Below are positions 2,398 to 53,329 of a stretch of 64,000 nt of DNA, piece after piece (position 1 is the first letter of the stretch; each line of letters starts with the position of its first letter). Below the pieces are notes generated by a model. That model saw only the letters and a list, made by a program, of their open reading frames with translations, ran no database searches and was not told the origin of the DNA. This DNA comes from Malacoraja senta (taxonomy: Eukaryota). The position numbers and the translations under genes were made by a program. Where the stretch lies: NCBI GenBank assembly GCA_038087875.1, contig CM075989.1, positions 8,186,001 through 8,250,000 of the forward strand, read 5' to 3'.

Positions 2398-2498
2398 ATT
2401 TCATCTGTCTGAAGAAGGGTCTCGACCCAAAACGTCACCCATTCCTTCTCTCCAGAGATGCTGCCTGTCGCGCTGAGTTACTCCAGCATTTCGTGTCT
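2398..2498 (+). mobile_element. pLTR-derived short element with mutated hammerhead core
   Basis: CTGAAGA-AGGGTCTCGACCC-AAAACGTC (GAAA changed to AAAA); perfect 16-bp TSD ACCTGAAATATACCAT at 2382-2397 and 2499-2514. Confidence 0.8.
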
Positions 2499-3129
2499 AC
2501 CTGAAATATACCATGCTTAATCACTGTGATCATTTAAATAATCCATTCATCTTTACTAACAGCACCTTGCAAATATGCCCCATTCTTAAATCAGACCACA
2601 CATTTGAGGTGCACACTAATTGACTAAGCAACCAAAAATTGAACAGCCTGTATTATATCTATCCTTTCTTTGTAATCATCAGCACACCATCATTTTATTT
2701 TGCCTTGAATGAGTGATTTCCAAATCACAATTCCAAATTCCAATTACATTCCAAATTTAAAATGTTGTCAATAACCTTTGTTTTAAACCAAAACAAAACT
2801 TGGTACACAATGTCACATAAACCTATAATGTCTATTCTATTATTGAATGCATTACTTTTGGGAATTTTATGCAAGGGTTGAACATTAAGGAAAATAAGAG
2901 ATGAGAGGTGAATGCAGTAAAGTAGCAAGGTAAAAAAAAAGAGCCATGAATGACAGAGCAGTTCCCATTTCCATTTTTTTCCATTCTAATTTCCTCAAAA
3001 TATTTCAGCACAATGACCTTTAACCACAATTGTTCCTTCATTGAAAAGTAAAAACAGTCTTTTAAGCAATCTTGTGTAATGGATCTACCATGTCGACCAG
3101 TTGAAAGGAATTCCTGTACACTTTATTTT

Positions 3130-3710
3130 TAAGCTTCGACCACAACCAAAAACAAAGACGGACCTCCTCTACACACCACTGACTGGCAGCTGCACGTCGA
3201 TCTGGGCAAACTGCTGAAATTTCCACAGCACATCACAGCAACATCACTCCGGCCAGACATGATCATCACCTCCGAAGTGACAAAACAGCTGATCATTCTG
3301 GAGTTGACAGCGCCCTGGGAAGAGCGTATTGAAGAGGCTAATGAGAGGAAACGCACAAAGTACCAGGAACTGGTGGAGATGTGCCAGGACAGCGGCTGGA
3401 AGACATACTATGAGCCCATAGAGGTGGACTGTAGAGGCTTTGCAGGACGCTCACTCTGCAAAGTCCTCAACCAGTTGGGCATTACGGGGCTGGCAAAGAG
3501 GGCCATTCAATCCGCAAGCGAAGCCACAGAGAAACTTTGGATTAAGAGGGCTGATCCGTGGGCGGTTGCTGCTGGGACGCAAGTCGGGGCTTGGTCAACC
3601 CCGGCTGGGTCGCCTGGGCGAGGGTGTCTGATGTTGAGACCCGAAACACCCGTTGACCCCGGGTCACATCACTGAGGATGCATCCCAGCGCACCTAGAAG
3701 ATGTATTTTT
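3130..3710 (+). mobile_element. HERO/R2-superfamily non-LTR retrotransposon 3' end (restriction-like endonuclease plus 3'UTR)
   Basis: DWQLHVDL..FPQHI..TSLRPDMII..KQLIILELTAPWEERIEEANERKRTKYQEL..PIEV.CRGF is a PD-(D/E)xK RLE domain typical of HERO-clade elements. Confidence 0.8.
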
Positions 3711-5199
3711 CACACATTGAAGACTTGCTCAAGCAAGCCAAATGCTGTAAACACAACATTTAAAATAAATCATGGGGATATTTATCTGGTCAGGCAGTGT
3801 AAATGGAGAAAAGCAATTCAATGATTGAACAATACTTTGTCACACATGCCTAGGTGCAGTGAATACTGCGTTTTGCATACAACCTGATAAAATCATATAG
3901 GAGACCTCACCTAGGCAGTACATGTGTGTCACCACGATTTGGCGCAGACAAAGTTACAAAGGGTTAACCCTCTGCCTTTGCTCTCATTTCTTCACATTCT
4001 CCTTACATCGTCTAATCATCTTTTGCTTAATTACATAACCAAGGAGGAATTCCTAGGTTTAACCATAATAAAGCCTTTAATTTAAATAAGTCATAGACAA
4101 GATATCTGAGGACTCAAGATGAAAACCTCAAGCAACGCCAAAACCTACATTATAAATTCAAAAAGGCAGCAATTTTATGATAATCTCATGTAGATTCCAG
4201 TGACATTTATAAATTGCAAGATTCATGTTTTATGGAGCCCCCTGAGAATTCAATCATATTAATGTTTTACAAGACAAACAATTTTGGGAGGAATTGAAAC
4301 CAGCCAGCCACCTTTTGCATTTTATGAGGAATTCTCAGAGCAAATTAAATTGCAGAAAGTGCAGGAAATGATTACGCTGAAGCAGATGATTTTACTCCCT
4401 TTAAAGTGCAGAGCAGAAAGTATTATACTCTGCCATCACTGATCTCTGTAGTTACATTTAGTCTGGTAATAAATTGTTCATTCACATTATACTTTGAAGT
4501 GATTGATCCAAAACCGCTTCACCTGTGGCAACAGTTCAATTGAAGATAAATGTATAGTTTACTTGTTGGTGGTAAAAAGGAAAATGGAGGAAGATTGGTG
4601 AGGAATATACTGCGAGCAACTGTAAAAAACAAGCATCAAGCAGATATAATTTCTCAAGATCACAACTCTTGTCAGAGTTTAATAAATTAAAATAAATAAT
4701 TTGAAAGGGAAGAATAACACTAATCAAATCATATCAGTTTAAAAAAAAGCTTTATTTTATGCCTAACCCTTCACCTCTGCAGTCTCTCCTTCAATTGTGC
4801 TCACCTTCACCAGAAACTCCCACCTTCACTTGCTTGCTGGACACACCTCTAATCCAATATATGTTGACTCAACATTCACTTTTAAGGCCAACACCACCAA
4901 TAAACTTTCTACAATATGGCAATCCTCATCGTTTAAAATTACCCGCCATATTTCTGTAAAAAGTAGAAGCATTGAGTTTATCTTATTACCAATATCTCTG
5001 CAAGCTTGTAAAACTAACAGCCCCAAAATTCAATGGCCATTTTAGTTCTGCAATAATTTTTTAATACCACCCACAGTAGAAACCAGCTTTTGTGAACATT
5101 TCAACTCTGCTCGCATGGTTCCGTTTACTTTGAGCTAATGCAGCTACATTTGTTGACAGTACTTCTTCCTCTGTGTTACCAAGCTTCTCAACAATGCTT

Positions 5200-5390
5200 C
5201 TATAAGGCAGCACACTATGCAATCATCTCTACACATTGCACTAGATTCCGTGCTCTGCATCTTCTCCTTTATTCTATCTATTGTACTCGAGTTTAACACA
5301 TACATTTATGTATAGTATCTGATCGGATAGCATGCAAAACAAAACGTTTCAATATACCCCAGTATACGTGATATTAAACCTAAAACTTAC
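5200..5390 (+). mobile_element. Rex1/Babar-type LINE 3' tail (old)
   Basis: ggatagcatgcaaaacaaaa..tttca..atacgtgatattaaac tail shared with 39.7-39.9 kb and 45.9 kb copies. Confidence 0.55.
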
Positions 5391-5739
5391 CCACAATTGA
5401 CCCTCTATCGCTACCTATCAGCATTACTCACAAGCATAAGGACTGTTTCCATACAGCCAGTTCTTTGCCAATATCAAACTTCCCAATATCAAATTTATAA
5501 TCTGGATTATAGCAACCTCTTTGCCCAAATTCAGTTGGAACCTCCAGTATGATTTCAGATGAGTTGATTCTCAACAGAAACAAGACTAACATCCTCACGA
5601 GATGGCGGGATCCTGTTGGGAAGGGTTCAAAATAGATTGGTGGGAGTTGGTGGAACAAGAGGGTAAAAACAGGAGGACGTAAAGCAGAGCGAGAAATATT
5701 AGAAAATGAGAGATCAGGTAGGGTGGGGGTTGGTATTTA

Positions 5740-7128
5740 GGAAGGTTCAGGGTAGCTAATGTAACCCCACGTTTTAAGAAAGGAGAGAGAAAACAGGGAA
5801 TTATAGACCTGTAAGCTTGATATCCATAGTGGGTAAGATGCTTGTGTCGATTATTAAAGATGTAATAGCAGCGCATTTGGAAAGCAGTGACAGGATCGGT
5901 CAAAGTCAACATAGACTTAAGAAGGGGAAATCATGCTTGACTAATCTTCTGGAATTTTTTGAGGAAGTAACAAGTAGAATGGATAAGGGAGAGCCAGTGA
6001 ATGTGGTGTATCTGGACTTTCAAAAGCCCTTGACAAGGTCCTACACAAGAGATTGGTGTGCAAAATTAAAGTACATGGTATTGGGGGTAAGGTATTGACA
6101 TGGATATAGAACTGGTTGGCTGACATGAAGCAAAGAGTAGGAATTAACGGGTCCTTTTCAGAATGGCAGGCAGTGACTAGTGAGACTCAGTGCTGGGATC
6201 CCAGTTATTTACAATATATATTAATGATTTGGACTAGGGAATTAAATGTAACATCTTCAAGTTTGCGGATGACACAAAGCTGGGTGGCAGTGTGAGGTAC
6301 GAGGAAGATGCTATGAGACTGCAGGGTGACTTGGATAGGTTGGGTGAGTGGGCAGATGCAGTATAATTTGTATAAATGTGAGGTGGCAAGAACAGGAAGG
6401 CAGATTATCATCTGAATGGTGTCAGATTAGGAAAAGGGGAGGTGCAACAAGACCTTGTCACTGAAAGTAAGCATGCAGTTACAGCAGGCAGTGAAGAAAG
6501 CTAATGGCATGTTGGCCTTCATTGCGAGAGGATTTGAGTTTAGGAGCAAAATGGTTCTACTGCAGTAGTACAGGGCCCTGGTGAGACCGCACCTGGAGTA
6601 TTGTGTGCAGGTTTGGTCCCCTAATTTGAGGAAGGACATTATTGCTATCAAGGGAGTACAGCGTAGATTCACCAGGTTAATTGCCGGATGGCAGGACTGA
6701 CATATGATGAAAGAATGGGTTGACTGGGCTTGTATTCACTGGAATTTAGGAGAGGGGATCTTATAGAAACATAACATTCTTAAAGGATTGGACATGCTAG
6801 ATACAGGAAAAATGTTCCCAATGTTGGCGGAGTCCAGAACCAGGGGTCATAGTATAAGAATAAGGGGTTGGCCATTTTGGACTATGATGCAGAAAAACCT
6901 TGACCCAGACAGTTGTAAATCTGTGGAATTCTCTGCCACAGAAGGCAGTGGAAGCTAATTCACTGGATGTTTTCAAGAGAGAGTTAGATTTAGCTCTTAG
7001 GGCTACAGGGATCAAGGAATATGGGTAAAAAGCAAGAACAGGGTACTGATTTTGGATGAGCAGCCATGATCATATTGAATGGCTGCCTTGAAAGGCCAAA
7101 TGGCCTACTCCTATTTTCTATGTTTCTA
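5740..7128 (+). mobile_element. CR1 LINE, 5'-truncated, disrupted RT
   Basis: GKSCLTNLLEFFEEVTS..YLDFQK, KFADDTKL motifs; CR1 3'UTR ending ttctatgtttcta. Confidence 0.9.
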
Positions 7129-7284
7129 CGAAAGAAAAGACAATAATGCTGGCCAACGACAACAGTTAAAAGAATCATAATGCAAGGAGGGGACATAGTG
7201 TACAAGTACTCGAATGCATCAGTATATGACATCAGTGTAAAGAAAAGAAAATTAAGCATATTTGAATGTTTGCAGCCTTTATTT

Positions 7285-7600
7285 TGTTTTAGTTTTAAAA
7301 ATATGGCGCGGAAACAGGCCATTCGGCCCATTGAGTCCGCATTGACCAGCGATCCCCGCACATTAATACAAGCCGACACACTAGGGACAATTTACACTTA
7401 TACCAAGTATACAAACCCAAGCCAATTAACCTACAAACCTGACGATTTGGAGTGTGGGAGGAAACCGAAGATCTCGGAGAAAACCCATGCAGGTCACAGG
7501 GAGAATGTTTAAACTCCGTACAGACAGCACCCATAGTCAGGATCTAACCCGGGTCTCTGGGTCTGTAAGGCAGTGATTCTACAGCTGCGCCACCGTGCTG
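7285..7600 (-). mobile_element. HE1/V-SINE (tRNA-derived SINE)
   Basis: Reverse strand has a tRNA-like head (ggtggcgcagc..gacccggg), V-domain (ctgtacggagttt..ctcccacactccaaa) and CR1-like tail. Confidence 0.85.
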
Positions 7601-7689
7601 CCTTATAAAAATAGGAGAGTATTGCCACAAATAACAATGAATAAGTATGATGTGATGGTCATTAAAATTACATGTTAAGTTGACCAAGG

Positions 7690-8650
7690 TAAGGATATGA
7701 ACATTCAAGAATATCTTTTGTATTCCAAGGATAGGCAGAAACAAAAAGGAGGGGTACGTATGCCAATAAAATATGCAATTACTGTCATAGAGGCGAATTA
7801 TATTAGCTCAGTCACTGGTGTGAGTAGTATATAGGCCACTTGATGGCAGGTATGCTGTAGAATGCTATACATTCTAGTATACGTTAAAAAAAAAACTAGG
7901 GCTTATAAGAAAGGTACTGAGATAATCAAGTGCAATTTTAATCATCATACCAATGATTGGACAAATCAAACTGGCAGGACATCATTGAAAAATAATATAT
8001 TTGGGATGATTTCTCAGAGCAAAACATTAAGGAAACAGAAAGTACGCCATTTTAGATCTGATAGTGTAATGGAAAGAGAATAATTAAGAATCTAATATTA
8101 TTACAGGATCTCTATGGAAAGAACAATCGAGCACAACGGAATTTCAAATTCCAGTTGAATAAAAGAGATCTTGGTCAGAAACAAGAGTCATACATGAATT
8201 TACAATACTTTGAGGATGAAGAGCTGCTAAAATAGACTAGAAAAATAGATGACACAAGGTGACAGATCAGCACTGGCAGACATTTAAGGTGACATTCCAT
8301 AAATCTCAAATTCTGGTGGGGAAGATGGGTAATAAAAAAAATGCACAATCAGTGCCCGATTTAAACAAATCAAGAATGGCATTGAACTGAAAGAAAAAGA
8401 ATATAAGGTTGCACATATTGTTTAGAGGCAAGAGGATTGGGCTTTTTTTTTTAGAAACCTGTAAAGATAGCAAGCACAAAAACATACCAGAAAGAGCTTA
8501 AACAGACACATATGTTAGGGGTAACAGTTCAGAAAAATAGACTGCCAGTGGATGAGATTGGGGAATTAATAAAATGGGAAATATAGGAATGGTAGTGTTT
8601 TAAAAACATTGCCCAAATTTTAAGAGAAAAATCATATTAAAAATATTGGA
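7690..8650 (+). mobile_element. Highly decayed CR1 ORF2 N-terminal region
   Basis: Remnant NIQEY..KDRQKQKGGV endonuclease-like peptide; A-rich CR1-like composition. Confidence 0.4.
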
Positions 8651-8679
8651 AGTGAAGATAACAGAAAAAAGTCAGATAA

Positions 8680-8985
8680 GGGCGACATGGTGGCACAGCA
8701 GTGGAGTTCCTTCCTTACAATGCAAGGGACCCGGGTTTGATCCCGACTACGGGTGCTGTCTATATGGAGTTTGTACATTTTCCCCGTGACCCGTGTCAGT
8801 TTTCTCCGAGATCTTCGGTTTCCCCCCCATACTCTAAAGACGTACAGGTTTGTAGGTGAATTGGCTGGGTATAAATGTAAATTGTCCCTAGTGTATGTAG
8901 GATAGTGTTAGTGTGCAGTGAATGCTGGTCACTGTGGACTAGGTGGGCTGAAGGGCTTGTTTCCGCACTGTATCTCTAAACCAAA
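8680..8985 (+). mobile_element. HE1/V-SINE
   Basis: A box TGGCACAGCAGTGG, B box GGTTTGATCCC, V-domain, tail gggctgaagggcttgtttccgcactgtatctctaaa. Confidence 0.85.
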
Positions 8986-9265
8986 CTAAAAAAAGTGTGA
9001 AAACTACAGCTATCAGCTGTTCCAGTCTTAAGTCTTTTGTTAACTTGAAGTTTGCAAAATATTCAGACTTGGTAGGAGTGTCTTGCTGATAAGAAAAATG
9101 TATAATTATGCTAACTCGCCTTTGTTCTGTGAGTGGGAGCACGAGAAGCACTGAGCAATGTTTGTGCTCATTGTAATCTCGCCACTTCCGTCTCACGAAT
9201 CAATTAAAGATTGCCATGGTCTACCTTCAACGTTGATTGCTATCTGCTTTTTATGAAACAAGCTT

Positions 9266-11129: not shown

Positions 11130-11930
11130 ATATGGAAGAGTTGTGAAAGATTGCAGCAGGATCTTGATCGATTGGCCAGGTGGGCTGAGGAATGGTTGAT
11201 GGAATTTAATACAGAGAAATGTGAAGTCTTGTAATTTGGGACATCTAACAAGGGCAGGACCTACACAGCGAATGGTAGGCCTCTGGGGAGTGTTATAGAG
11301 CAGAGGGATCTAGGAGTGCAGGTGCATGGTTCCATGGAGGTCGAGTCGCATAAGGTGGTCAAAAAGGATTTTGGCACATTGGCCTTCATCAGTCAGAATA
11401 TTGATTATAGAAGTTGGGAGTCATGTTGCAGTTGTATAGTTACATTGGTGAGACTGAATTTAGAAAATTGTGTTCAGCTCTGGGCACCATGTTATAGGAA
11501 AGATATTGTCAAGCTTGAAAGAGTTCAGAGAAGATTTACGAGGATGGTGCCAGGACTAGAGTGTCTGAGCTATAGGGAGAGGTTGAGTAGGCTGAGTCTC
11601 TATTCTTTGTAGCACAGGAGGATGAGGGGTGATCTTATAGAGGTGTATAAAATCATGAGATGAATAAATCGGGTAGATACACAGAATCTCGTGCCCAGAG
11701 TAGGGGAATCGAGGACATAGGCCCAAGGTGAAGGTGAAAAGATGAATACGAATCTGAGGGGTAACTTTTTCACTAAGGGTGGTGGGGTAAGGAACAAGCT
11801 GCCAGCGGAGGAAGTTGAGGCTAGGATTATCCCGATGTTTAAGAAACAGTTAGACAGGTACATGGATAGGACAAGTTTGGAGGGATATGGACCAACGCAG
11901 GCAGGTGGGACGTGTAACTATGATTCTATG
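11130..11930 (+). mobile_element. CR1 LINE 3' fragment (second family)
   Basis: LQQDLDRLARWAEEWLMEFNTEKCEV, LERVQRRFTRMVPGL; CR1 3'UTR. Confidence 0.85.
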
Positions 11931-13416: not shown

Positions 13417-13570
13417 TTATGGAAACAAGGAACTGCAAATGCTGGTTTACAAAAATGGTGCTGGAGTACTTCATCGGGTCAGCGTTTCTTCAGATTGAAA
13501 GGTCCCAACCCAAAACATCTACCCATGTTGTCTAGAGATGTTGCCCACTGACTTACTCCAGCACTTTGTG
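13417..13570. mobile_element. Head-to-head pLTR pair (old) with TSD
   Basis: Inverted pLTR halves; 13-bp TSD TCTTTGCACCATT at 13404-13416 and 13571-13583. Confidence 0.7.
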
Positions 13571-15164
13571 TCTTTGCACCATTCTCCTGTTTGGTCATTA
13601 GAAAAATGTGTGATTTCATTCAGTGTAGAATTTTGTTTAAAAAAAATTCTCAAAGGGCAAGGAAGTTGGTGGAATTTCTGGACACAAATGCATGTTACTA
13701 CAAGAGATATTCCAAAATACATTAAAAAAAAACTATTTTATGAAAATATTTTCTAAGTCAATTAAAAACAGCCCTTGAGCAGTTTATGCCTCGCCCCATT
13801 GCTACAAGCAAAGCTAGATTTGTCAGAAATCCCCATTCAACTCAGCAATGGAACAAGTCAGGACCATCCCTTTGTTACCCACCTGCTACCTACTGGAAGT
13901 TCAGAAGCAGGATAGGCTTACATTGGTTCTGCAACTCAATCACATTGTGCCTGAATTTGCGCCAAATCTTATTTACTCGACCTTTCTGCAGGTTGCAAGC
14001 ACCAAAACTAAAAATCACACCTACACTTGCCAATTTTGTCTTTCGGTTTAGAACATTTTTCTAGCCTTTCATACCACCTCTCTACCCCCCCCCCCCCCTC
14101 CCATCTGTTCTCACTGTATTCTATCCTGGAAAACCATCCTCCTTGTCAGCATCTTTTACAAAAAATATTTACATTATGGAGACAAAGTAATACAGCACTG
14201 AAAAAGATCATTTGACCCACCATGTCTATGCTGACCTTACCTATACCAGTCCAGTTTACCCACAATTGGTCAGTAGCCTTCTGCGTTGGCAATTCAAGTG
14301 CTGGGCTGGACAAATATTGCAAGAGTACCTCATTACTTGTCATTCGAATCACTCTCCCATTTCCCCTAAGATCGTTTCTAAACCTTCCCCTTTCACTTTA
14401 TACCTACGCTATCTCGTTTTAGACCGCCCCCACCAACAGAAAACAATTCTCACTGCCTATCCTATTGTATTAGGTCACCCTTCAGCCACCTCCATTACAG
14501 AGAATACAAACCTAACCATCAATGTTTTCCTTGTAATCAAAGCTAATCGAAGCCAGGTAACATTGTGGTACATTTCTTCCACACTCTGTTCAATGCTTCC
14601 TATAGTATGGTGTTCAGAACTTGCTCATGACAGAAGTGCAGCCATTTGGCCCATGTCAGCTGCCAGAATTAACATTGTGGCCCTAGCCTTGATTTCTCTG
14701 CAAACTATTCACACATATGACCACGGATTCCTGTTATTCAATATTTTTCTACTAAAAGGCATAATTTACAGCAGCCAATTACTTAAACAATATTCTGTGG
14801 GAGGAAAAAAACAAGGTTATATATAAAAAATACAATGCGACTCATTACAGCCACAGAATTAAATTGGAAAATGCCAATTACACAATACTATGCAATAGGA
14901 ATGCTAATGTGTCCCAGTTAATTCCGAATTAAGTAATCAACATATTCCATTGCCACGAACAACACTCAAGGAATACATAAAAGGCACATCAATAAATCGC
15001 ACCAGTGAAAGAAAAACAGCAGGTAATTATCATCAGATAAAGTAACTTGCTGAAGCAGACAAGCAAAAGTAAAAAAGTCAATTCGAGAGAACTAAACTCA
15101 GTGTAGAAATACCAGTTGGGAAGACAACAAGACAAAAAGAATCAATTTCGTACACTATCACCAA

Positions 15165-17305: not shown

Positions 17306-17808
17306 ACTTTGTTGTTATAGGATGCAGAATCTTGATGTCAACTAGAAATAATGTAGTAGTCGCTGCAAGACCAATTCCAGGATGGACATGAATCAATAAC
17401 TACTGTTCACATCAAGTTCAGTCATAAGAGAAATATACATTGTTTAAAAGGTTGGTCTTCATCTAACAGCAGTGTCGAATGGAAAGCATGCGATTTGCCT
17501 AGTTCTTGCACTGACAGTAGGATCTCAGATTTTATTTGGTTAGATGGATTCTTTTTGTAGTATAATTTGTATGCTTAGATGCAATTGAACATTTTTTTAC
17601 AATAAAGTCAGAAATATGTTTAATTATGTCTTTATTATAATAGTTTCATAACAGCTCAATGTACTAAACTGTACATGCTGAAAGAAACAGGTAAAAGGTT
17701 TTGTGGAGATCAACTTACAATGTTAATTTGAAAATTGCTATGTCTGAACCGTCCTCATGTCTCCTTTAAATACTGTTCCTCACCAAAAAGGTCATTGTTC
17801 AGTGAAAG

Positions 17809-17904
17809 GTACACAAAAATGCTGGAGAAACTCAGCGGGTGCAGCAGCATCTATGGAGCGAAGGAAATAGGTAACGTTTCGGGCCGAAACCCTTCTTCAG
17901 ACTC
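17809..17904 (-). mobile_element. pLTR-derived element with intact minimal hammerhead core
   Basis: Minus strand CTGAAGA-AGGGT-TTCG-GCCC-GAAACGTT (17900-17873); 11-bp TSD TTCAGTGAAAG at 17798-17808 and 17905-17915. Confidence 0.8.
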
Positions 17905-18039
17905 TTCAGTGAAAGATGTGTACAAGCTCTTGCAAGTAAACAAAACATTGTTTGTCTTGACTAAATAAGCTCTACAAGATAACTTGAATTCAGTAACATT
18001 TAAATGTATTGCAGTCAGTACTCAACATTCATTACAGAG

Positions 18040-19159: not shown

Positions 19160-19360
19160 CGATAGACACAAAATGCTGGAGTAATTCAGCGGGACAGGCA
19201 TCATCTCTGGAGAGAAGGAATGGGTCACTTTTTGGGTCGAGACCCTTCTTCAAAACGTCACCTATTCCTTCTCTCCAGAGATGCTGCCTGTCCCGCTGAG
19301 TTACTCCAGCAATGTGTCTAGCTTCGGTTTAAACCAGCATCTGCAGTTCCTTCCGACACG
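19160..19360. mobile_element. Head-to-head pLTR pair with TSD
   Basis: Inverted arms fused within the hammerhead region; direct repeat GGTGCCATGA on both sides. Confidence 0.8.
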
Positions 19361-20571
19361 GGTGCCATGAACAGACTGGCTGGCAGGTAGTCTGCCTACA
19401 AGATTGGTTGTATGCCATCCTGAGGTGAGGGATCAGCTAAAGACGACAACTTGCTCTGATGTTAATTTTGCTGCTGAAATGCCACATTTGCAGTTACGAT
19501 AAATTGTACTTATTTACAATTATGAGGACACACAGGTGGAAGAAATTGTGGCATCTGGTTTTTAAATTAAACCGTGCTCCAAAACCACAAAACAATCACT
19601 CTCGAGACTGAAAGGAGGGAAAACCCGTACCTGTACTGTAAACATTTTTGTACTATGATGAATCCACCTGGAGCCAGGAAAAACTACTGCAATGGATTTC
19701 AAATAAAATATACATGCCAATGTGCACAGTTAAGCTTTCATTAAAGTCCAAATGTGTGTGGAAGGAGAAGACACTTGTTCTCCATTCTGTCATTTGAATA
19801 AATGGTAATTTCAATCTATTTTCTAATACAGAACACAAGACTTGCATTGAAAGAATAAAGAATTTATTTGCAACTGCAAGGGATCTTTCTAAAAACGTAT
19901 TTTTTCTATTTGCATGTAATGAGGCGGTCGAGGGTAATGAAGTGAATCTTACAAATGAAGCATACATCCTAATAGTTTCAATCATTCTACTGATAGAAAA
20001 TAACTGAAAATACCACGTACAGTATATAAACAGGAATGCTGGATGTTGAATGAAACCAAAATTTAAAGATTTCCAACTCTCCCCAAAACTGATATAAAAA
20101 TTCATGATTTTCTTCATACATGCTTTCTTGACTATTTTTGCAACTGAAAGTTCTTTAAAGCAGTCATAAAAAAAAGCTAAATCAGAACCAATATGTGCTC
20201 AAGTGGTTCTGCATATAGACTAAAAATAATTATTTTTTTCATAAATTACATTTAACTTTGATATTGACAATAGGAAGCCATCAAATGACTTAGATTCCTT
20301 CGCTCCATAGATGCTCTCACCCGCTGAGTTTCTCCAGCATTTTTGTGTAGCTTAGATAAAAACCGAGTTTGTATAATCCGTTCAGACAGTTAAAATAAAA
20401 CATAATAATATGCTATGTTCTCAAATACATGACCAGGCAAGAATAATTCTACTTTAAAATTCCTGTGCATTCTCCAGACTAAATAACTTTGTGGATACAA
20501 TTTTATTGAGTTTTATTTTAAAGCATTATTGAAAATATATCACAACCTCTATAAAAAATACATTTCCCTCA

Positions 20572-20810
20572 GATAGAAGCAAAATGCTGGAGTAATTCAG
20601 TGCGACAGGCAGCATCTCTGGAGAGAAGGAATGGGTGATGTTTCAGGTAGAGACCCATCTTCAGATTCCTGAGACGTCTGAAGAAGGGTCTCGACCAGAA
20701 ACGTCACATAGTCCTGCTCTCCTGAGATGCTGCCTGTCCTGCTGAGTTGCTCCAGCATTTTGTGTCTATGTTGGGTTTAAACCAGCATCTGCTGTTCCTT
20801 CCTACACAAG
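20572..20810. mobile_element. Head-to-head pLTR pair, hammerhead core on each strand
   Basis: Plus strand CTGAAGA..GAAACGTC and minus strand CTGAAGA..GAAACATC; TSD TTTCCCTCA. Confidence 0.8.
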
Positions 20811-25453: not shown

Positions 25454-27063
25454 GAGGGGCTTGCAAAAGTTTTCATACCCCTTGAACTTTTCCACATTTT
25501 GTCACGTTACAACCACAAACGTAAATGTATTTTATTGGGATTTTATGGGATAGACCAACACAAAGTGGTGCATAATTGTGAAGTGGAAGGAAAATGATAC
25601 ATGGTTTTCAAATTTTTTTACAAATAAAAAACTGAAAAGTGTCACGTGCAAAAGTATTCAGCCCCCCTGAGTCAATACTATGTAGAACCACCTTTCGCTG
25701 CAATTACAGCTGCAAGTCTTTTGGGGTATGTCTCTACCAGCTTTGCACATCTAGAGACTGAAATTTTTGCCCATTCTTCTTTGCAAAATAGCTCAAGCTC
25801 AGTCAGATTGGATGGAGAGCGTCTGTGAACAGCAATTTTCAAGTCTTGCCAGAGATTCTCAATTGGATTTAGGTCTGGACTTTGACTGGGCCATTCTAAC
25901 ACATGAATATGCTTTGATCTAAACCATTCCATTGTAGCTCTGGCTGTATGTTTAGGGTCGTTGTCCTGCTGGAAGGTGAACCTCCGCCCGTCTCAAGTCT
26001 TTTGCAGACTCCAACAGGTTTTCCTCCAAGATTGCCCTGTATTTGGCTCCATCAATCTTCCCATCAACTCTGACCAGCTTCCCTGTCCCTGCTGAAGCAA
26101 AGCATCCCCACAGCATGATGCTGCCACCACCATGTTTCACAGTGGGGATGGTGTGTTCAGGGTGATGTGCAGTGTTTGGTTTCCGCCACACATAGCGTTT
26201 TGCATTTAGGCCAAAAACTTCAATTTTGGTCTCATCTGACCAGAGCACCTTCCTCCACATGTTTGCTGTGTCCCCCACATGGCTTGTGGCAAACTGCAAA
26301 CGGGACTTCTTATGGCTTTTTTTCAACAATGGCTTTCTTCTTGCCACTCTTCCATAAAGGCCCGATTTGTGGAGTGCACGACTAATAGTTGTCCTGTGGA
26401 CAGATTCTCCCACCTGAGCTGTGGATCTCTGCAGCTCCTCCAGAGTTACCATGGGCCTCTTGGCTGCTTCTCTGATCAATGCTCTCCTTGCCTGTCAGTT
26501 TAGGTGGACAGCCATGTCTTGGTAGGTTTGCAGTTGTGCCATACTCTTTCCATTTTCGGATGATGGATTGAACAGTGCTCCGTGAGATGTTCAAAGCTTG
26601 GGATATTTTTTTATAACCTAACCCTGCTTTAAACTTCTCCACAACTTTATCCCTGACCTGTCTGGTGTGTTCCTTGGGCTTCATGATAGCGTTTGTTCAC
26701 TAATGTTCTCTAACAAACCTCCGAGTCCTTCACAGAACAGCTGTATTTATACTGAGATTAGATTACACACAAGTGGACTCTATTTACTAATTAGGTGACT
26801 TCTGAAGGCAATTGGTTGCACTGGATTTTATTTAGGGGTATCAGAGGAAAGGGGGCTGAATACTTTTGCACGCGACACTTTTTCAGTTTTTTATTTGTAA
26901 AAAATTTGAAAACCATGTATCATTTTCCTTCCACTTCACAATTATGCGCCACTTTGTGTTGGTCTATCACATAAAATCCCAATAAAATACATTTACGTTT
27001 GTGGTTGTAACGTGACAAAATGTGGAAAAGTTCAAGGGGTATGAATACTTTTGCAAGCCACTG
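25454..27063 (-). mobile_element. Full-length Passport-like Tc1/mariner DNA transposon (DD34E)
   Basis: About 210-bp TIRs (25454-25668, 26851-27063) with inner and outer TGCAAAAGTATTCA repeats; TA at 25452-25453 and 27064-27065; 1.6 kb. Confidence 0.95.
25672..26684 (-). pseudogene. Tc1 transposase with two small frameshift deletions and a near-terminal stop
   Basis: MKPKEHTRQVRDKVVEK..; [20 protein letters not shown] with 34 aa between D and E; frameshifts near 26490 and 25990. Confidence 0.93.
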
Positions 27064-27319
27064 TATATACACACATATATATACACACACATATATATAC
27101 ACACACATATATATACACACACACACATATTTATATATACACACACATACATATATATATATATATACATATATCCTGCTACATAAGCATATCTCACCTT
27201 GAGATCAGACGAGACAACTACAGCAACTTCAGCTACAGCAGCAATGACAATTATGTTAGTGGACCAAACTTGCATGTAAAACCTAAATAAAACAAGTGTT
27301 TATTCAGACAATTACAAAC

Positions 27320-27415
27320 AGTCTGAAGAAGGGTTTCGACCTGAAACTTTGCCTATTTCCTTCACTCCATAGATGCTGCCTCACCCGCTGAGTTTCACCA
27401 GCATTTATATCTACC
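27320..27415 (+). mobile_element. pLTR-derived element with degenerate hammerhead core
   Basis: CTGAAGA-AGGGTTTCGACCT-GAAACTTT followed by the pLTR tail. Confidence 0.75.
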
Positions 27416-27417
27416 TT

Positions 27418-28850: not shown

Positions 28851-31255
28851 GGTTAAGGAGAGGCTGCAGAAGGTTTTCTGGAAAGGTTTAAAACCAGCTA
28901 CGGCAACCAGTCAGGTGACACTCAGTATCAGCAAGGAAATGACTCGCCACAGTTTTGTGCTACGCTTATGAACTGTTTGCCTTCCAGCGTCGCAATGGCT
29001 ATTAAAACCAATAATATGGACTGGTCAGAGTCTTCACCGGCCCGCATGTCAAGAGCTGTGAAAGCCTTTTGGAAAAACTGTCCTGTTGGAGACAGGGAAG
29101 CCCACATAAAGGCAAAAAATGAATATGTGAGCAAGCCAAACTATTTGCGCTGACTAGAGCCTGCACCCTGGCCGAAGGACTATCTGCAAATATTTACACG
29201 GATTCCCAATATGCTTTTGGAGTGGTTCATGATTATGGACAATTATGGAAGAATGGGGGGTTTCTAACCTCTTCAGGGACAGTGATATCTCACAAAAATT
29301 GGTTTCTAATTTGCTACAGGCCATTCAGTTACCCAGTCAGCTTGCTGTTATCAAAGTTAGAGCCCATACTATAGGCCAAAGCCCCAGAGACATAGGAAAT
29401 CGCCTTGCCGACGAGGCAGCTAAGAAAGCTTTTAGGAGTCACCAAATTGTTGTGCCCCACATGCTGTGGCAGACTAAAAATTATACTAGGAAGTCTCCCC
29501 TGGAAAAAGGAAGTACTTCAGGTACCCAAACTTCAGGTACCCAAGGAAGCCAACCATCCAGGAAGTACTTCAAATATAGGAGGACGATCCTGCCCAGGTA
29601 AAACAGCTGTGGCAGGACTAGGGTTGTGTGGTACGATCCTGTCACTAGCTTGTGGGTTACGCCTGCCAGCAAGACTTGCGTTGTGGGTTATTGAATGTGT
29701 ACACTTTGCAACTCATTGTGGTGCCAAGGCCGTACGTGATATGCTTTTAGAGACCCGGTGGCATCCAAAACCTCTGGACTTGTCCCAGCGTATCTGCCAG
29801 CGATGTCTGATTTGCCAGCAGCATAATCCAGCTAAGGACTGGCCCTGTGAACCAGGTAAGACCCCTTTACCAGCAGGTCCCTTTGAGACTTTGCAAATGG
29901 ACTACATTGAGTTGGAAAGATCTCAGTGTTATATGTTCTTGTAATTGTTGATGTTTTTAGTAAATGGATAGTTATCGTTGGTGCCTCTCATGTGTGTGGT
30001 AGCATTATATTTTTGAATGAATCAGACCAAGAGGAAATATAAAAGATTCAAGGGACTGAGTGGATGATGTTTGAAAGATTCTTTGTGTAACTGATTTTAC
30101 AAAGGATGTGAGTTTATTGCAATAGGCAGAATCAGGGATTGTAAAATGAGCAAATGCAAAGGTGTTGTTAATAAACCATGTATCTGGGGCGTTACTGCGC
30201 TGTATAAAACTGCAGTTGCCGCATGCCTGCCGCTGGGCTGATCCCCTAACACCGCCAGTTCCATCTGGGTGTGAAACCATGTGGATAAATGAAATGGATT
30301 AAAGCATATCCGACCACTGACAATAAAGCCTCTAACGTTGTAAAAATATTATTACGCGAAATCATACCGTGATTCGATGTACCTGCGCGTTTAAGTTCAG
30401 ATAATGGTCCTCATTTTATTGCTGCTATAAACAAAGAAATGTGCCATCAATTACAGATACATCAACAGCTCCATTGTGCGTATCGACCTTAGGTCGCCGG
30501 ATTGGTGGAACGAGCAAACCAGAAATCCAAATTAGCAAAATTAGTGGCACAGACTGGCTTAACATGGTTAAAACTGCTCCCTGTAGCTCTTTTTCAGATA
30601 CGGACCACTCCTTCTGGTACGGCACAAATAACGCCTGCGGAAATCATATATGGTCGACCTTTACAGATGCCATGGAACGACCATGGCCCCCGTGATGGTC
30701 CATTTCCACCAGATTACTGAGGAAATGACATCCTATGTATTAACGTTAATCCGTGCTTTGCGAACTTCTCATTCACGGGTCAGGGCTGCATATGGTGAGT
30801 GCTCAAAGTTCCATCTAATATTGAGCCAGGTTGCTAGGTGCTGGTCAGGAACTGGACGAGTAAGCACCTCAACGCACGTTGGGATGGTAATTTGCAGGTT
30901 CTCCTCACCGCTCCGACCGCAGCCCTTAAATCGAGGGTCGCGCTGCGTGGGTTCACCCGAACCACTGCAAATTGATTGGGGAGACCAATTAAAAGGGGGG
31001 AAGAAGAGTAATTTTATTTTTAATTTAGAGTTTTTTTCGTTTAAGTTTAGTTTTGAATCTTAATAAGTTTAGTTTTTGAATCCTTATTTTGCTATATGGT
31101 TAAGAATATGCAACTGAATACTGGACTGACTGACTGAAGGACGTTTAAATTGAGTGAATTTGTTGTTTAAGCTAATTAAGTAAGAAATTAGCTTTTTGTG
31201 AGGCTTTGCATATTCCAGATAAATCAAAATGAGGCGATTCATCCTGCTATGCATA
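28850..31255 (+). mobile_element. Class I (epsilon-like) endogenous retrovirus fragment: putative gag piece, RNase H, integrase, PPT, probable 3' LTR start
   Basis: ALTRACTLAEG..ANIYTDSQYAFGVVHDYG..W; KVRAH..GNRLADEAAK; H-H-C-C zinc finger; LQMDYI; SSDNGPHF; GLVERAN; PPT AAAAGGGGGGAA near 30991-31002. Confidence 0.88.
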
Positions 31256-32829
31256 GATACATAGAAAATAGGTGCAGTTAGATCATCCAACTCAGTATCC
31301 CGTACCTGCCTTCTCTCCATACCCCCTGATGCCTTTAGCCACAAGGGCCACATCTAACTCCCTCTTAAATATAGCCAATGAACTGGCCTCAACTACCCTC
31401 TGTGGCAGAGAGTTCCAGAGATTCACCACTCTGTGTGAAAACGTTTTTTCTCATCTCGGTCTTAAAGGATTTCCCCCTTATCCTTAAGCTGTGACCCCTT
31501 GTCCTGGACTTCCCCAACATCGGGAACAATCTTCCTGCATCTAGCCTGTCCAACCCCATAAGAATTTTGTAAGTTTCTATAAGATCCCCTCTCAATCTCC
31601 TAAATTCTAGCGAGTATATGCCGAGTCTATCCAGTCTTTCTTCATATGAAAGTCCTGACATCCCAGGAATCAGTCTGGTGAACCTTCTCTGCACTCCCTC
31701 TATGGCTATAATGTCCTTCCTCAGATTTGGAGACCAAAACTGTACGTAATACTCCAGGTGTGGTCTCACCAAGACCCTGTACAACTGCAGTAGAACCTCC
31801 CTGCTCCTATACTCAAATCCTTTTGCTATGAAAGCTAACATACCATTCGCTTTCTTCACTGCCTGCTGCACCTGCATGCCTACTTTCAATGACTGGTGTA
31901 CCATGACACCCAGGTCTCGCTGCATCTCCCCTTTTCCTAATCGGCCACCATTTAGATAATAGTCTGCTTTCCTGTTTTTGCCACCAAAGTGGATAACCTC
32001 ACATTTATCCACATTATACTGCATCTGCCAAATATTTGCCCACTCACCCAGCCTATCCAAGTCACCTTGCAGTATCCTAGCATCCTCCTCACAGCTAACA
32101 CTGCCCCCCAGCTTAGTGTCATCCGCAAACTTGGAGATGTTGCCTTCAATTCCCTCATCCAGCTCATTAATATAAATTGTAAATAGCTGGGGTCCCAGCA
32201 CTGAGCCTTGCGGTACCCCACTAGTCACTGCCTGCCATTGTGAAAAGGACCCGTTTACTCCTACTCTTTTGCTTCCTGTTTGCCAGCCAGTTCTCTATCC
32301 ACATCAATACTGAATCCCCAATACCGTGTGCTTTTAAGTTTGTATATTAAACTCTTATGTGGGACCTTGTCGAAAGCCTTCTGAAAGTCCAGATACAACA
32401 CATCCACTGGTTCTCCCCTATCCACTCTACTGGTTACATCCTCGAAAAATTCTATAAGATTCGTCAGACATGATTTACCTTTCGTAAATCCATGCTGACT
32501 TGGTTCAATGATTTCACCACTTTCCAAATATGCTGCTATCCCATCTTTAATAACTGACTCTAGCAGTTTCCCCACTACCGATGTTAGACTAACTGGTCTG
32601 TAATTCCCCGTTTTCTCTCTCCCTCCCTTCTTAAAAAGTGGGGTTACGTTTGCTACCCTCCAATCCTCAGGAACTACTCCAGAATCTAAAGAGTTTTGAA
32701 AAATTATCACTAATGCATCCACTATTTCTGGAGCTACTTCCTTAAGTACTCTGGGATGCAGCCTATCTGGCCCTGGTGATTTATCGGCCTTTAATCCATT
32801 CAATTTACCCAACACCACTTCCCGACTAA
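31255..32829 (-). mobile_element. Young CR1 LINE, 5'-truncated, RT largely open
   Basis: ORFs 32818-32261 and 32228-31389: YRPVSLTS, QHGF, YLDFQKAFDKVPH, GVPQGSVLGP, KFADDTKL. Confidence 0.95.
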
Positions 32830-32980
32830 TTTAAGAGACAGTTAGACAGGTACATGGATAGGACAGGTTTGGAGGGATATGGACCAAGCGCAGGCAAGTG
32901 GGGCTAGTGTAGCTGGGACATTGTTGGCCGGTGTGGAAGAGTTGGGCCGAAGGGCCTGTTTCCATACTGTATGACTCTAG
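32830..32980 (+). mobile_element. CR1 3' end (second family) abutting the 5' end of the young CR1
   Basis: Same tail as 11840-11930; gggccgaagggcctgtttcc. Confidence 0.8.
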
Positions 32981-33176: not shown

Positions 33177-33550
33177 AGTGGGCAGGACAAAGATAGAATG
33201 TAGTTGGAGACAGTAAGACTGGTGGGAGAACTGGGGAGGGGATGGAGAGAGAGGGAAAGCAACGGCTATTTGAAGTTAGAGAAGTCAATGTTCATATCGC
33301 CGGGGTGTAAGCTACCCAAGCAAAATATGAGGTGCTGTTCCTCCAATTTGCGCTGGGCCTTCAGACTGATTTCAGGGGAGTGGGCAGGACAAAGATAGAA
33401 TGTAGTTGGAGACAGTAAGACTGGTGGGAGAACCAGTCTTACTGTCTCCAACTACGTTCTATCTTTGTCCTGCCCACTCCCCTGAAATCAGTCTGAAGAA
33501 GGGTCTTGACCTAAAACGTCACCCATTCCTTCTCTCCAGAGATGCTGCCT
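33177..33550. mobile_element. Rearranged Penelope 3' fragments with a 67-bp fold-back
   Basis: AQRKLEEQHLIFCLGSLHP..MNIDFSNF on the minus strand; arms 33359-33425 and 33432-33498. Confidence 0.85.
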
Positions 33551-33739
33551 AATAATTTAATATGCTGCCGGAGGGCTGCAATATAATAAGATAAAGGATT
33601 AGTTGCTGCTGCTCAAGTTTGCATTGGACACTGTTGGAGTAAAACAAGGAGGCGAAGAGCACGGAGAACTGAAGTGAGAGGCAATTAGAAGCTTGCTGTT
33701 CTCATTCTGGACTGAAAAGTAGCATTCTGCAGAGAAGAA

Positions 33740-34105
33740 TGTCAGATTGGGAATGAGAGGGAGAGTTGAAGCACTGAGCAACCAGGAGATCAGGTAGGGT
33801 TAAGGCGGACTGAGCGGAGGTGTTCAGCGAAATGATCGCCAAGCTACGCTTGGTCTCGCCGATGTACAGAAGTTGACACCTGGAACAGCGGATACAGTAG
33901 TCGAGGTTGGAGGAGGTGCAAGTGAACCTCTGCCTCATCTGGAAAGATTGTTGGATCCCAATCCCCTGACATCAGTCTGAAGAAAGGTCTCAACCCGAAA
34001 CATCGCCCATTCCTTCTCTTCAGAGATGCTGCCTGTCCCATGAGTTACTCCAGCATTTTGTGTCTACCTTCGATTTAAACCAGCATCTGCAGTTCTTTCC
34101 TACAT
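33740..34105. mobile_element. Penelope GIY-YIG fragment (-) joined to pLTR (+)
   Basis: RQRFTCTSSNL.YCIRCSRCQLLYIGETKR; pLTR with CTGAAGA..GAAAC. Confidence 0.85.
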
Positions 34106-39960: not shown

Positions 39961-40245
39961 TAGACACAAAATGCTGGAGTAACTCAGCGGAACAGCAAGC
40001 GTCTCCCAAGAGAAGTGATGTTTTGGACCGAGACCCTTCTTCAGACTGACTCGACCCAAAACGTCACCCTTTCCTTCTCTCCAGAGATGCTGCTGAGTTA
40101 CTGCAGCACTGTCCTGCTGAGTTACTGCAGCACTTTGTGTCTATCTTCGGTGTAAACCAGCATCTGCGGTTCCTTCAAAGGTCTGTTTATTGTCACGTGT
40201 ACCAATTAAGGTACAGTGAAACTCGAATTACTGCAGTTCCTTCCT
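39961..40245. mobile_element. Head-to-head pLTR pair with internal duplication and insertion
   Basis: Inverted pLTR halves; TSD AAA(C/T)ATACGTGGC on both sides. Confidence 0.75.
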
Positions 40246-44476: not shown

Positions 44477-44687
44477 ATAGACACAAAATGCTGGAGTAAC
44501 TCAGTGGGACAGGCAGAATCTCTGGAGATAAGGAATGGGTGACATTTTTCGGGTTGAGACACTTCTTCAGCCCCAAAATGTCAACCATTCCTTCTCTCCA
44601 GGGATGCTACCTGTCTTGCCGAGTTATTCCAGCATTTTGTGTCTACCTTCGATTTAAATAAGCATCTGCAGTTCTTTCCTACAATAC
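44477..44687. mobile_element. Head-to-head pLTR pair with TSD
   Basis: TSD TGTACAATTC(T/G)GCA at 44463-44476 and 44688-44701. Confidence 0.8.
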
Positions 44688-46808: not shown

Positions 46809-46899
46809 CTGAAGAAGGGTCTCGACCCGAAACGTCACCCATTCCTTCTCTAGAAATGCTGCCTCTCCTGCTAAATTACTCCAGCTTTTTGTGTCTATC
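46809..46899 (+). mobile_element. pLTR-derived element with intact minimal hammerhead core
   Basis: CTGAAGA-AGGGT-CTCG-ACCC-GAAACGTC at 46809-46836; TSD TAAGGT(A/G)TAC. Confidence 0.8.
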
Positions 46900-47524
46900 T
46901 AAGGTGTACCAATTGTTATTTGAGCGAATGCAACACAAGACTAAGTACAGCCATAAATACACGCTAGTCTGGTGATGTTTCAATGAGAACAATTAGCTGA
47001 GAGTGAGAGATCTTATTCCTTGAATATTGCCATACAATCTTCAAATCTAGCTGAACCACTGTTCAATACAGCCTTTGATTTATTATTTGGTCAGGAAGGC
47101 GATATTTTTGACAAGGTAGTTCTGCAATAATGTGTTCATTAAGATATTTCAAAAATGCAGAATACTTCATGACAAATTATGACAATAATCAAAATTACTG
47201 AATTCTGGTGAGGGATTTTGTTGACATGTAAACTGCAAGATTCAGTTGTGGATTTCATATTAATGGTTTTCTAAACCATAGTAAATTGCAGAGTCCATAC
47301 TCTTCACTTGCACAATATTAAATATTTATACACAATCCCCAGCACACACTGGGCATGTGCGAGTCATTTCAATTTGCCTGCTATATGAATTAAACAGTTC
47401 ATTTTCCTATGCTACAATGATGACTGAACTTCAAAAGAAGTACTTAATTAACTCTAAAACTCCTTGGGAGATCCTGAAAAGGACATGTATGACACCTATA
47501 TACTTGCAAGTTCTTCTCACTTTT

Positions 47525-47874: not shown

Positions 47875-48002
47875 TATGTAGGAAAGAACTGCAGATGCTG
47901 GTTTAAATCGAAGATAAACACAAAATGCTGGAGTAACTCAGCCGGACAGGCAGCATCTCTAGAGAAGGAATGGGTGACGTTTTGGGTCGAGACCCTTCTT
48001 TA
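47875..48002 (-). mobile_element. pLTR-derived element
   Basis: Reverse complement of the pLTR consensus, starting within the hammerhead region. Confidence 0.75.
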
Positions 48003-48741
48003 GGCTAGGATTCTAGGAATCACATGGAATTGAACTTTCTATCAATAATAATTTTTGAAAGTCGTGGTTACTGCTTAGTGTTCTGCGTGATTTGAATGTT
48101 AAAAGCTGTGGATGTGTTAAAATGGGACCAATCAGCTGACTAGAAATGTTCAAGCTGAGACTGGTTAGACTGTTAGTTACAAAAATATGAAAATATGCAG
48201 CTGCAACGCGTAATTTCATTGCTATTTGTTCTTGGTGTTTTCAATTCATAAGGTCATATGGTTATAAGTGATAGGATCAGAATTAGGCCATTCGGCCCAT
48301 CAAGTCTGCCATTCAATCATTGCTCATCTATCTCCCTCCTAACCCCATTCTTCTCCCCATAACATTTAACACCTGTACTAATCAAGAAATTGCATCAGAA
48401 TTTAATTGATACAGAATTTCATTAATAATATGAAATTCTACAAAGATTTGTCCTAAATAAATCATCTGATTATGGTAGAGCTATACAAATTAGGAAGATT
48501 AGAGGTTCCATTCCTAAATCTTCGATGTAGATCTTAGTGAAGACATAAACTGGCATACTTGACACCCCAATAAGGGGAAAAATCAACAAAAATTCTTCAT
48601 CAGGATTTTAGACAAGCATTTTATAAATATTTTCTTTCACTGATTTTCTGTAAAATCCATGCATAAAGGTGCTCCTGCCAAACTCAGATCTCTGAAACTG
48701 CCTACTGGGAAGCCACACGTCACCTCCTGCAGTGTCTAGTA

Positions 48742-52160: not shown

Positions 52161-53329
52161 GCTACGAATGGGATAAAGTGTAATGAAGACAGTTGCTGTT
52201 ACGCCAGTTCTTTTAATCTTGAAAAGCAATTTGGTCAGTTACTGTGACTATATTTGCTTCCCATTTGTCAATTGTCGAGTGGCACAGTAGGATATCCTAC
52301 TCTCCCAAACTGCCAGAAAAAAGCTATAGAAAAATAAAATACTAACGTGAAAATGAAGCACACAAAAAAGACAAAAGAAAGTTCCACTGCTTAATTGCAT
52401 GAATCTTAATTCCACTTTGTTCCACTTGCATTAATTTAATCTATCTTGCAGAATTAAAAAGTTATGTGCATAACCTATTGATGGATCCTCAGATTTATCT
52501 GTTTAATGGTGGACCTGCTCTTCTGATCTGACTGTCAGATCAATGAGATTTAGGACAGCTGACTGTACCATTTAGTGACATGCAAATGTTAAAATACAGC
52601 ATGAAAAATTGATTGATTAATTTGAAGAGTTATGAATCAACCAGGCCCACTGTCGCAGTGCCAAATTGATTCTGTCTTTTTAGTGCTTGTCATTTCCTGC
52701 TTAATTTCATTCGGTTGGCACTAGAGACCTTAATACAATTAAGACAGTTGTAAAATTAGCAATCTTCAAAGAAATAAAAGGGGTTGCGGAGGGGAACAGA
52801 AATCAATCTCGCTTTGCAACCCATTAATGTAAGCATTTGCATTCTAAACATAATCAAGCAAAATGATAAAATGTTGAAAAGTAAGTACTTTTATGTCTTT
52901 TATGAATATCTTGTAGTTGAGTTCTCAGATCGACAATGATATTGATGCTCAAGCAGGATCCAGTAAAGGCAAAAATATTGACAGCAATCAGCCAAAGACT
53001 AATTTAAAGTTTCTCTTAAGATGCTTTCGTGTTTACTTATATTAGTGGTAATAGTGCCACTTGCTTTCAAAATACGAGAATAGCACAGCCATAATAGCCA
53101 TAATAGTAAATTTACAGATTTATTCAGTTGAATACTTAACTTTGACTGGCTTTTGGATTCAGCATTCTCCCAGCTTCATGAGACTTGTGCCATAACATTG
53201 GATCTTCACAAAAAGCTTATATAAAGCACCAAGATTCATGTATGGCAACATAATGGGCCTGTCCCACTTAGGAAGAAGAAAGGGAGAGACAGTAGGCTGA
53301 GGGAGAGCTGAGAAGGGGATCTATCATCT

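Follow-up and report, generated by a model that had tools for sequence, protein, structure and literature searches.

The repeat at the centre of this analysis lies on the minus strand at positions 17809-17904 of the window, by which we mean the whole stretch of 64,000 nt analysed here. It is a 96-nt stub, flanked by two exact copies of an 11-bp target site duplication (TSD; 17798-17808 and 17905-17915, given for the plus strand). In two other organisms the site is empty: contigs join position 17797 to 17905 and lack exactly 107 nt, i.e. the 96-nt element plus one copy of the TSD. In a third organism, one contig flanks the locus on both sides. From the 11-bp repeat and the empty site in which 107 nt are skipped, it follows that 17809-17904 was inserted recently and in one step, and that its TSD is genuine. 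The stub carries a minimal type I hammerhead core (17873-17900, minus strand, found by pattern match), comprising the C3-A9 box, the extra nucleotide, a 4-bp helix II, the G12-A14 box, a 2-bp palindromic helix III and H17, with a predicted cut between 17873 and 17872. Positions within the repeated module will be counted from C3 of the hammerhead (+1; the base before it is -1), which places the predicted cut between +28 and +29. On this scale, the stub starts 3-4 nt before C3 and ends at about +92, at the presumed proximal start site of reverse transcriptase (RT).

The window holds 31 module-matching pieces, grouped as 21 insertion units, where an earlier note made from the bare sequence had spoken of more than a dozen insertions. 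The intact cores which that note placed at 17873-17900 (-), 46809-46836 (+) and 53719-53746 (+), as well as its mutated cores at 2409, 20678, 27323, 33493, 33977 and 57363, were all recovered. Its statement that many copies stand alone with TSDs of 9-16 bp overstated the number of lone stubs: single-orientation stubs with a TSD of at least 9 bp occur only three times in the window (2404, 17809 and 46809), and most other TSD-flanked units are head-to-head pairs (five, at 13426, 19161, 20571, 44477 and 54935). The stub at 2404-2502 (+) has a 16-bp TSD (2382, 2499) and short target-derived filler at its 5' junction; the one at 46809-46900 (+), with an intact core, has a TSD of about 10 bp with one mismatch that overlaps the ends. 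A further stub starts at -4 (27319-27416, +) and has no TSD of at least 9 bp, a tailed stub (47877-48006, -) extends to the distal RT start at about +129, and two others (130-179, +, with an 8-bp flanking repeat, and 20294-20357, +) start within the module, downstream of the core. As for the pairs, an old one at 13426-13573 joins a tailed and a tail-less arm (15-bp TSD), 19161-19359 consists of a tail-less minus-strand arm and a tailed plus-strand arm (12-bp TSD), both arms of 20571-20807 begin at the preferred start described below (13-bp TSD), and 44477-44683 has a 14-bp TSD, each of these four TSDs containing one mismatch. An older pair at 39961-40175 again combines a tail-less with a tailed arm.

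The earlier note also presented its copies as short elements of about 90-280 bp, which holds for some of them but not for those at 53719, 57363, 33493 and 33977. The core at 53719 terminates a 5'-truncated copy of about 490 nt (53324-53812, +), made up of the end of the GIY-YIG ORF, the 3' UTR and the module. The cores at 33493 and 33977 both sit inside one complex unit (33177-34104), built of inverted pieces of pLTR, 3' UTR and endonuclease end and possibly representing more than one insertion. The core at 57363 terminates a 1.6-kb copy with RT and endonuclease sequence, within a 2.5-kb head-to-head insertion (54935-57454; 10-bp TSD, 54925-54934 and 57460-57469) whose tailed minus-strand arm extends to about -758 and whose tail-less plus-strand arm extends to about -1581. 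Two fragments of a Cys-linker and GIY-YIG reading frame lie here, one at 55153-55614 (-) with its stop about 95 nt upstream of the core, the other, broken, at 56694-57257 (+) with its stop about 105 nt upstream of core 57363. At the edge of the window, a short tailed arm (-) stands head-to-head with an endonuclease-end copy that leaves the window (63576-64000). A near-identical duplicate of 56300-57460 was found about 148 kb downstream (G000:C13:8390515-8391675) and represents either a segmental duplication or an assembly duplicate.

An autonomous Neptune-like Penelope-like element (PLE) carries this module as its pLTR. Cores in the window lie about 95-105 nt 3' of the stop of a Cys-linker/GIY-YIG frame, and an upstream walk through the genome led to elements with the module at both ends: in one of them (L262) positions 104-702 recur at 3287-3895, in another (L264) 190-653 recur at 4029-4488. 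The ORF between these repeats is broken and contains RT motifs, a CxxxxCxxC linker and GIY-YIG. The RT motifs DKG and YIDD were read by eye in L263 and L264, and the RT region matched neither Pfam nor PDB sequences. The GIY-YIG of L262 matched PF01541 of Pfam just under the cut-off (E 4e-4, 21 bits, cut-off 22.6), and the two GIY-YIG fragments of the window had no Pfam match. All coding copies found are broken. The element body directly adjoins a tail of about 34 nt, the first ATG follows about 45 nt beyond the tail, and the partial-tandem pLTRs, the tail and the inverted neighbour copies together give the anatomy of endonuclease-bearing PLEs. CxxxxCxxC precedes the endonuclease, and a Cys motif resembling a Zn finger, set in the linker that joins RT to endonuclease, is described as the mark of Neptune and Nematis PLEs (PMC8557442). 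We call the element Neptune-like on the strength of this linker motif and the reported vertebrate distribution, and the other features examined agree with the assignment. Several lineages whose 3' UTRs differ have the module in common from about -5 onward. Two proposals of the earlier note are supported here: that the motif is a minimal type I hammerhead of a PLE pLTR, and that the Penelope RT/GIY-YIG protein effects insertion.

Two further observations concern the body of the element. The N-terminal part of its ORF contains a variable region of Pro/Thr/Arg-rich repeats (L263, about 1360-2120; L264, about 1180-2050) whose length differs by copy. Several body-bearing copies (L238-L249) lose similarity near +390 to +440 of the element, possibly at a further RT start site or as members of a deleted lineage.

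The exact core was matched at least 41,995 times in the 1.94-Gb genome and never by the reversed-pattern control. Scanning with a profile built on the 70 nt that follow the cut site yielded 495 matches (49-161 per block; none in reversed DNA) in a sample of 1.064 Mb, which consists of five blocks of 200-264 kb and is not random DNA. If the sampled blocks are typical, the genome would contain roughly 0.9 million module copies. The 411 matches scoring at least 35 bits, 194 of which include the core start, form the copy set used below. A TSD of at least 11 bp was found beside the core in 13 of 152 non-inverted sampled copies, against none in 455 shuffled pairings. The scale is large but the family ordinary, as pLTR fragments of PLEs with minimal hammerheads are already known across animal genomes. 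Thousands of dispersed single motifs have been ascribed to truncated PLEs, and the 4,000-9,000 described for coelacanth and Xenopus, counted with another descriptor, compare with the at least 41,995 exact copies here (PMC4209133).

The core shares with the minimal hammerheads of metazoan PLEs the catalytic boxes, the extra nucleotide, the G10.1-C11.1 pair and the palindromic 15.2-16.2 (PMC4209133). Its helix II has 4 bp, against the 7-8 bp described as usual in Schistosoma motifs, and its helix I has 2 bp, the length proposed in the earlier note, against the usual 4-5 bp, 2 bp being described for a D. virilis variant (Cervera and de la Pena 2014, PMC4209133). Rfam at its gathering threshold returned no hammerhead in the window. 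The predicted pairing probability is about 0 for helix I and about 0.01 for helix II, with alternative pairings sequestering the core; single stubs folded no better than shuffles (z -1.5 to +0.2), and minimum free energy folding of the module dimer did not give the hammerhead dimer. By these models, unaided hammerhead folding is predicted to be negligible. In PAc, the Poseidon element from Anolis carolinensis, the hammerhead is described as cleaving only with protein (Frangieh et al. 2024, PMC11167929).

Conservation of the core differs between lineages and single copies. Frequent lineage-level changes affect loop 2, 11.4, 1.1 (A or G opposite U) and H17 (C or U), and none of them conflicts with the fold. 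In single copies, CpG sites decay as they would in neutral DNA (of 199 copies, 67% retain G12 and 72% retain 16.2), and the catalytic positions together with the 4-bp helix II are intact in 56 of the 194 core-start copies. Variability of N7, as a sign of ribozyme constraint among copies, was absent (A 0.86). The core is conserved no more than the downstream hairpin region, both being common to lineages with differing 3' UTRs. Likely, constraint on the ribozyme is confined to active master elements, the stubs carrying it along as a passenger. As a separate observation, L121 (about 4340-4480) has two exact cores 38 nt apart (G000:C1:3997405 and 3997443), a head-to-tail duplication of the hammerhead only that amounts to a natural dimer substrate; similar back-joints of 34-39 nt occur in contigs of other runs.

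Next to the core, the copies have a sharply preferred 5' start. Among 149 non-inverted core-bearing copies, 70 begin at -6 to +4, with the ends concentrated at -6 to +1; we will call this edge, about 6 nt in width, the wall. Stops occur there at a rate of 0.067/nt, compared with about 0.003/nt from -7 to -200 (Fisher p 3e-50), and upstream of -7 the 5' ends spread smoothly to about 2 kb. Of the young copies with an exact core, 31 of 72 start at the wall and one at -7 to -20. When junctions were simulated at -10, -20 and -40, most came back at their true positions, with a few of those from -10 to -40 collapsing to the wall, and the start peak is therefore not produced by the method. The wall stands at the same place (mean -2.2 to -2.7) in four reference classes with different 3' UTRs, and in four sequencing runs from other studies the loose ends of contigs lie at -6 to -3. 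When 25 loci were picked for their body start, five proved to begin at -7 to +3, including two with long bodies, and others pass upstream or begin within the module. Short target-derived filler or microhomology is frequent at the 5' junctions, and the stubs have no upstream sequence in common. The 3' ends are bimodal, at about +93-95 and about +127-130, the latter including the tail, and tails are equally frequent among stubs (28/72), among long copies (26/68) and among inverted ones (14/35). Thus, the clustering right before the core, which the earlier note had described as starts at or just before the CTGA, is real and strong, and the tabulated 5' breakpoints agree with its expectation that the length distribution would not be continuous: there are discrete starts and two 3' sites. 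A peak of starts at +21 was rejected as a separate start, since by inspection it is due to internal tandem units of 66 nt and fold-back junctions. Such tandem units, spanning about +21 to +86 and without the C3-A9 box, recur in the block G000:C1:3000001-3200000 (L021-L040); because they recur at many loci, they were probably inherited from the pLTR of one lineage.

Ordinary random 5' truncation would account for the smooth spread of 5' ends upstream of -7, and the existence of two-pLTR elements would allow solo modules to arise by recombination between pLTRs. Truncation of this kind is refuted by the hazard profile, which shows stopping at the wall about 20-fold above background, and recombination cannot yield TSD-flanked head-to-head stubs with one tail; an origin by either route is very improbable. 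The presence of a hammerhead in the module, with lineage-level core changes that all preserve the fold, would also be in keeping with stubs as reverse transcripts of ribozyme-cleaved RNA. A cleaved template, however, begins at +29 and lacks the core, and only two of the 411 copies have their first match there. In a subset of 226 of the 411 copies, chosen by downstream similarity alone, the wall stops 36 of the 96 non-inverted copies at risk, whereas 5 of 139 stop near the cut site, corresponding to 0.047/nt at the wall and 0.009/nt near +29. For PAc, unprocessed, uncleaved RNA is described as the main template (PMC11167929). For core-bearing stubs, an origin from cleaved RNA is refuted, and we hold it to be extremely improbable, although cleaved RNA may have given rise to some minor class of copies.

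Head-to-head pairs were found 71 times, and in 35 of them the flanks form a TSD with at least 10 matches, against 0 of 400 controls. In 59 of the 67 pairs that could be classified, one arm is tailed and the other tail-less (p 1.5e-10). An enlarged set of 94 pairs contains 25 in which both arms reach the wall, drawn from a pool that includes loci chosen for long copies: in 16 both arms stop there, in 6 both pass, for example in the 2.5-kb insertion 54935-57454, and 3 are mixed, where 10.5 mixed pairs were expected (exact p 6e-4). This shared behaviour of the two arms makes it likely that the wall belongs to the RNA. Many pair arms begin within the module, and these, together with the width of the wall of about 6 nt, call for trimming or microhomology joining.

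We consider it probable that each repeat arose in one step, by insertion of the pLTR module of an autonomous Neptune-like PLE, and is likely a dead-end stub: RT would start within the module and then likely reach the 5' end of an uncleaved RNA, about 3 nt upstream of the core, and run off it. The PLE protein, probably as a dimer, would nick both target strands, and one cDNA would be primed from each of two internal start sites. If a single cDNA survived, a single stub would result; if two were joined, a head-to-head pair. The wall would correspond to the 5' end of the uncleaved RNA, most likely set by transcription start at an initiator-like pentamer at -5 to -1 that is common to all lineages; the likeness to the initiator consensus is our own assumption. 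In D. virilis, transcription is described as starting within the pLTR (PMC2377424), in keeping with such a start. RNA in which the module follows the 3' UTR and ORF, be it a 3' pLTR, tandem read-through or a circle, would give rise to the long copies. Stubs end at the RT start sites, and PAc is described as needing RNA beyond its RT start sites for copying (PMC11167929). By analogy with this Anolis element, stubs likely lack the downstream RNA needed for recopying and would be dead on arrival.

The 3' ends fit the two-site internal initiation described for PAc, in which two internal RT start sites bound the tail, both target strands are nicked and extended, and the hammerhead lies upstream of the start sites, as it does here, and is dispensable for insertion in vitro (PMC11167929). 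PAc differs in clade, and its ORF is described as starting in helix II, whereas the first ATG here follows the tail. Furthermore, the start site of PAc in vitro is given as the same for both strands, whereas 59 of 67 genomic pairs here used one site per strand (PMC11167929).

Alternatively, the wall could reflect a block to RT on a longer RNA, either by a protein-held fold or by a protein occupying a splice acceptor (a polypyrimidine tract and AG) immediately 5' of helix I. All lineages have a pyrimidine-rich 3' UTR that ends in CAG at -4 to -2, a GT resembling a splice donor is present in many of them at the ORF stop, some 100 nt upstream, and an excess of G at -4, as a signature of a cap, was absent from the first 100 of 4,957 matches (G32/A41/T27, p 0.12-0.22). 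In D. virilis, the hammerhead is described as lying about 120 nt downstream of the transcription start, and helix I as the point where an intron ends (PMC4209133, PMC2377424); both points favour the splice acceptor. Against such a block, the position of the wall is unmoved by differences in C-runs between lineages, the abundant lineage A has no donor-like GT, the ORF-end region was found as an upstream exon in none of the 78 stubs tested (best score 22), and no GT..AG joint occurs among the joints listed (15/64). Coupled arms would be unexpected from independent stalls, though occupancy of a shared RNA could produce them. On balance, we regard a block as unlikely, though it deserves serious consideration.

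The earlier note had interpreted the repeats as a retrozyme-like, prolific non-coding element mobilised by the Penelope RT/GIY-YIG. Such an element would amount to a separate, self-propagating but non-autonomous family of retrozyme or SINE type that cycles by way of its own transcripts or circles and uses the PLE protein in trans. Very high copy number, discrete lengths and the 56 core-start copies with intact catalytic positions and helix II would suit such a family, as would one clade of the tree (96/88) with 11 stubs and 3 long copies. Animal retrozymes are described as derived from pLTRs (bioRxiv 10.64898/2026.07.22.740005), and those of non-LTR type as tandem repeats of 150-400 nt with canonical hammerheads and abundant circRNA (PMC7229834; bioRxiv 10.64898/2026.07.22.740005). 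The repeats resemble these in being non-coding and short and in having a type I hammerhead, pLTR ancestry and long TSDs, but the stubs stand alone or in head-to-head pairs, and their motif is a minimal one that occupies the 5' edge. No consecutive complete hammerheads in tandem were found, and the hammerhead is non-canonical, with a 2-bp helix I and no loop 3; rare core duplications of about 38 nt and the 66-nt units without the C3-A9 box do exist. Among the 194 core-start copies there are 20 same-strand neighbours closer than 1 kb, against an estimated 17 or so expected by density, and their spacings, 152-980 nt, show no period. In every lineage, stubs are found beside long coding copies, and the two kinds are intermixed on a tree of 46 stubs and 54 long copies: 29 label changes were counted against 32.8 after shuffling (44-56 of 500 shuffles as low), the tree having few columns and weak resolution. 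In addition, the 5' junctions vary and flanks are not carried over, G12 is retained in just 67% of copies through CpG decay, and twin-primed events need a tail on the template, which about 60% of the stubs lack. A family of this kind is largely refuted here and we consider it improbable.

Returning to one-step insertions of the pLTR module, we tentatively propose, as an extension that is possible but rather unlikely to hold in full, that a dimeric enzyme primes both strands on one RNA, with one subunit per start site, and that this RNA exists in two states. Linear, capped, uncleaved RNA beginning 3 nt before the hammerhead would yield, from the first module it contains, only 'strong-stop' stubs of about 97 or 131 nt. 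RNA in which the module is continuous with the 3' UTR, as a circle made by the hammerhead or a tandem or strand-transfer equivalent, would yield long, tailed and more-than-unit copies. If true, this two-template model would explain how the pLTR is regenerated and would make the ribozyme a switch from the dead-end to the productive template, with stubs as a genomic fossil record of the PLE cycle.

With endonuclease-bearing (EN+) Neptune PLEs as described in PMC8557442, the element shares the single ORF of RT, Cys linker and C-terminal GIY-YIG, the partial-tandem pLTRs, a tail (30-40 bp and often one-ended in those PLEs), the hammerhead in the pLTR, frequent 5' truncation and the adjacent inverted copy. 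In contrast to that description, a single wall of 6 nt immediately 5' of the core is where about half of the copies here stop, and the pairing of one tailed with one tail-less arm and the coupled stopping are quantified here. The literature searched, mostly open-access, contained nothing relevant on a 5' wall, on a strong-stop or twin-priming model in PLEs, or on this family in sharks and skates. The start wall, the quantified one-tail rule and the arm coupling were likewise absent from it, while the family itself appears to be a PLE of known type. The value of these three patterns is mechanistic, as they give sharp predictions on how a poorly understood class of elements is copied.

Several other transposable element relics were observed in the window. 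Two open frames without a Pfam match were judged by eye, 3133-3675 (+) being presumably the end of a LINE with a restriction-like endonuclease and 61085-61714 (-) presumably a DIRS-like gag/RT start. Broken RNase H/integrase-like frames at 29233-29944 (+; Integrase_H2C2 of Pfam, E 3e-5, under the cut-off) represent an LTR retroelement or a retrovirus-like relic. LINE-type RT fragments, which we take to be CR1-like, are located at 31389-32830 (-) and 11235-11612 (+) (RVT_1 of Pfam, E 5e-12 for 31389-32294), and a fragment of a Tc1/mariner-type transposase lies at 25952-26494 (-; HTH_Tnp_Tc3_2 of Pfam, E 1e-25).
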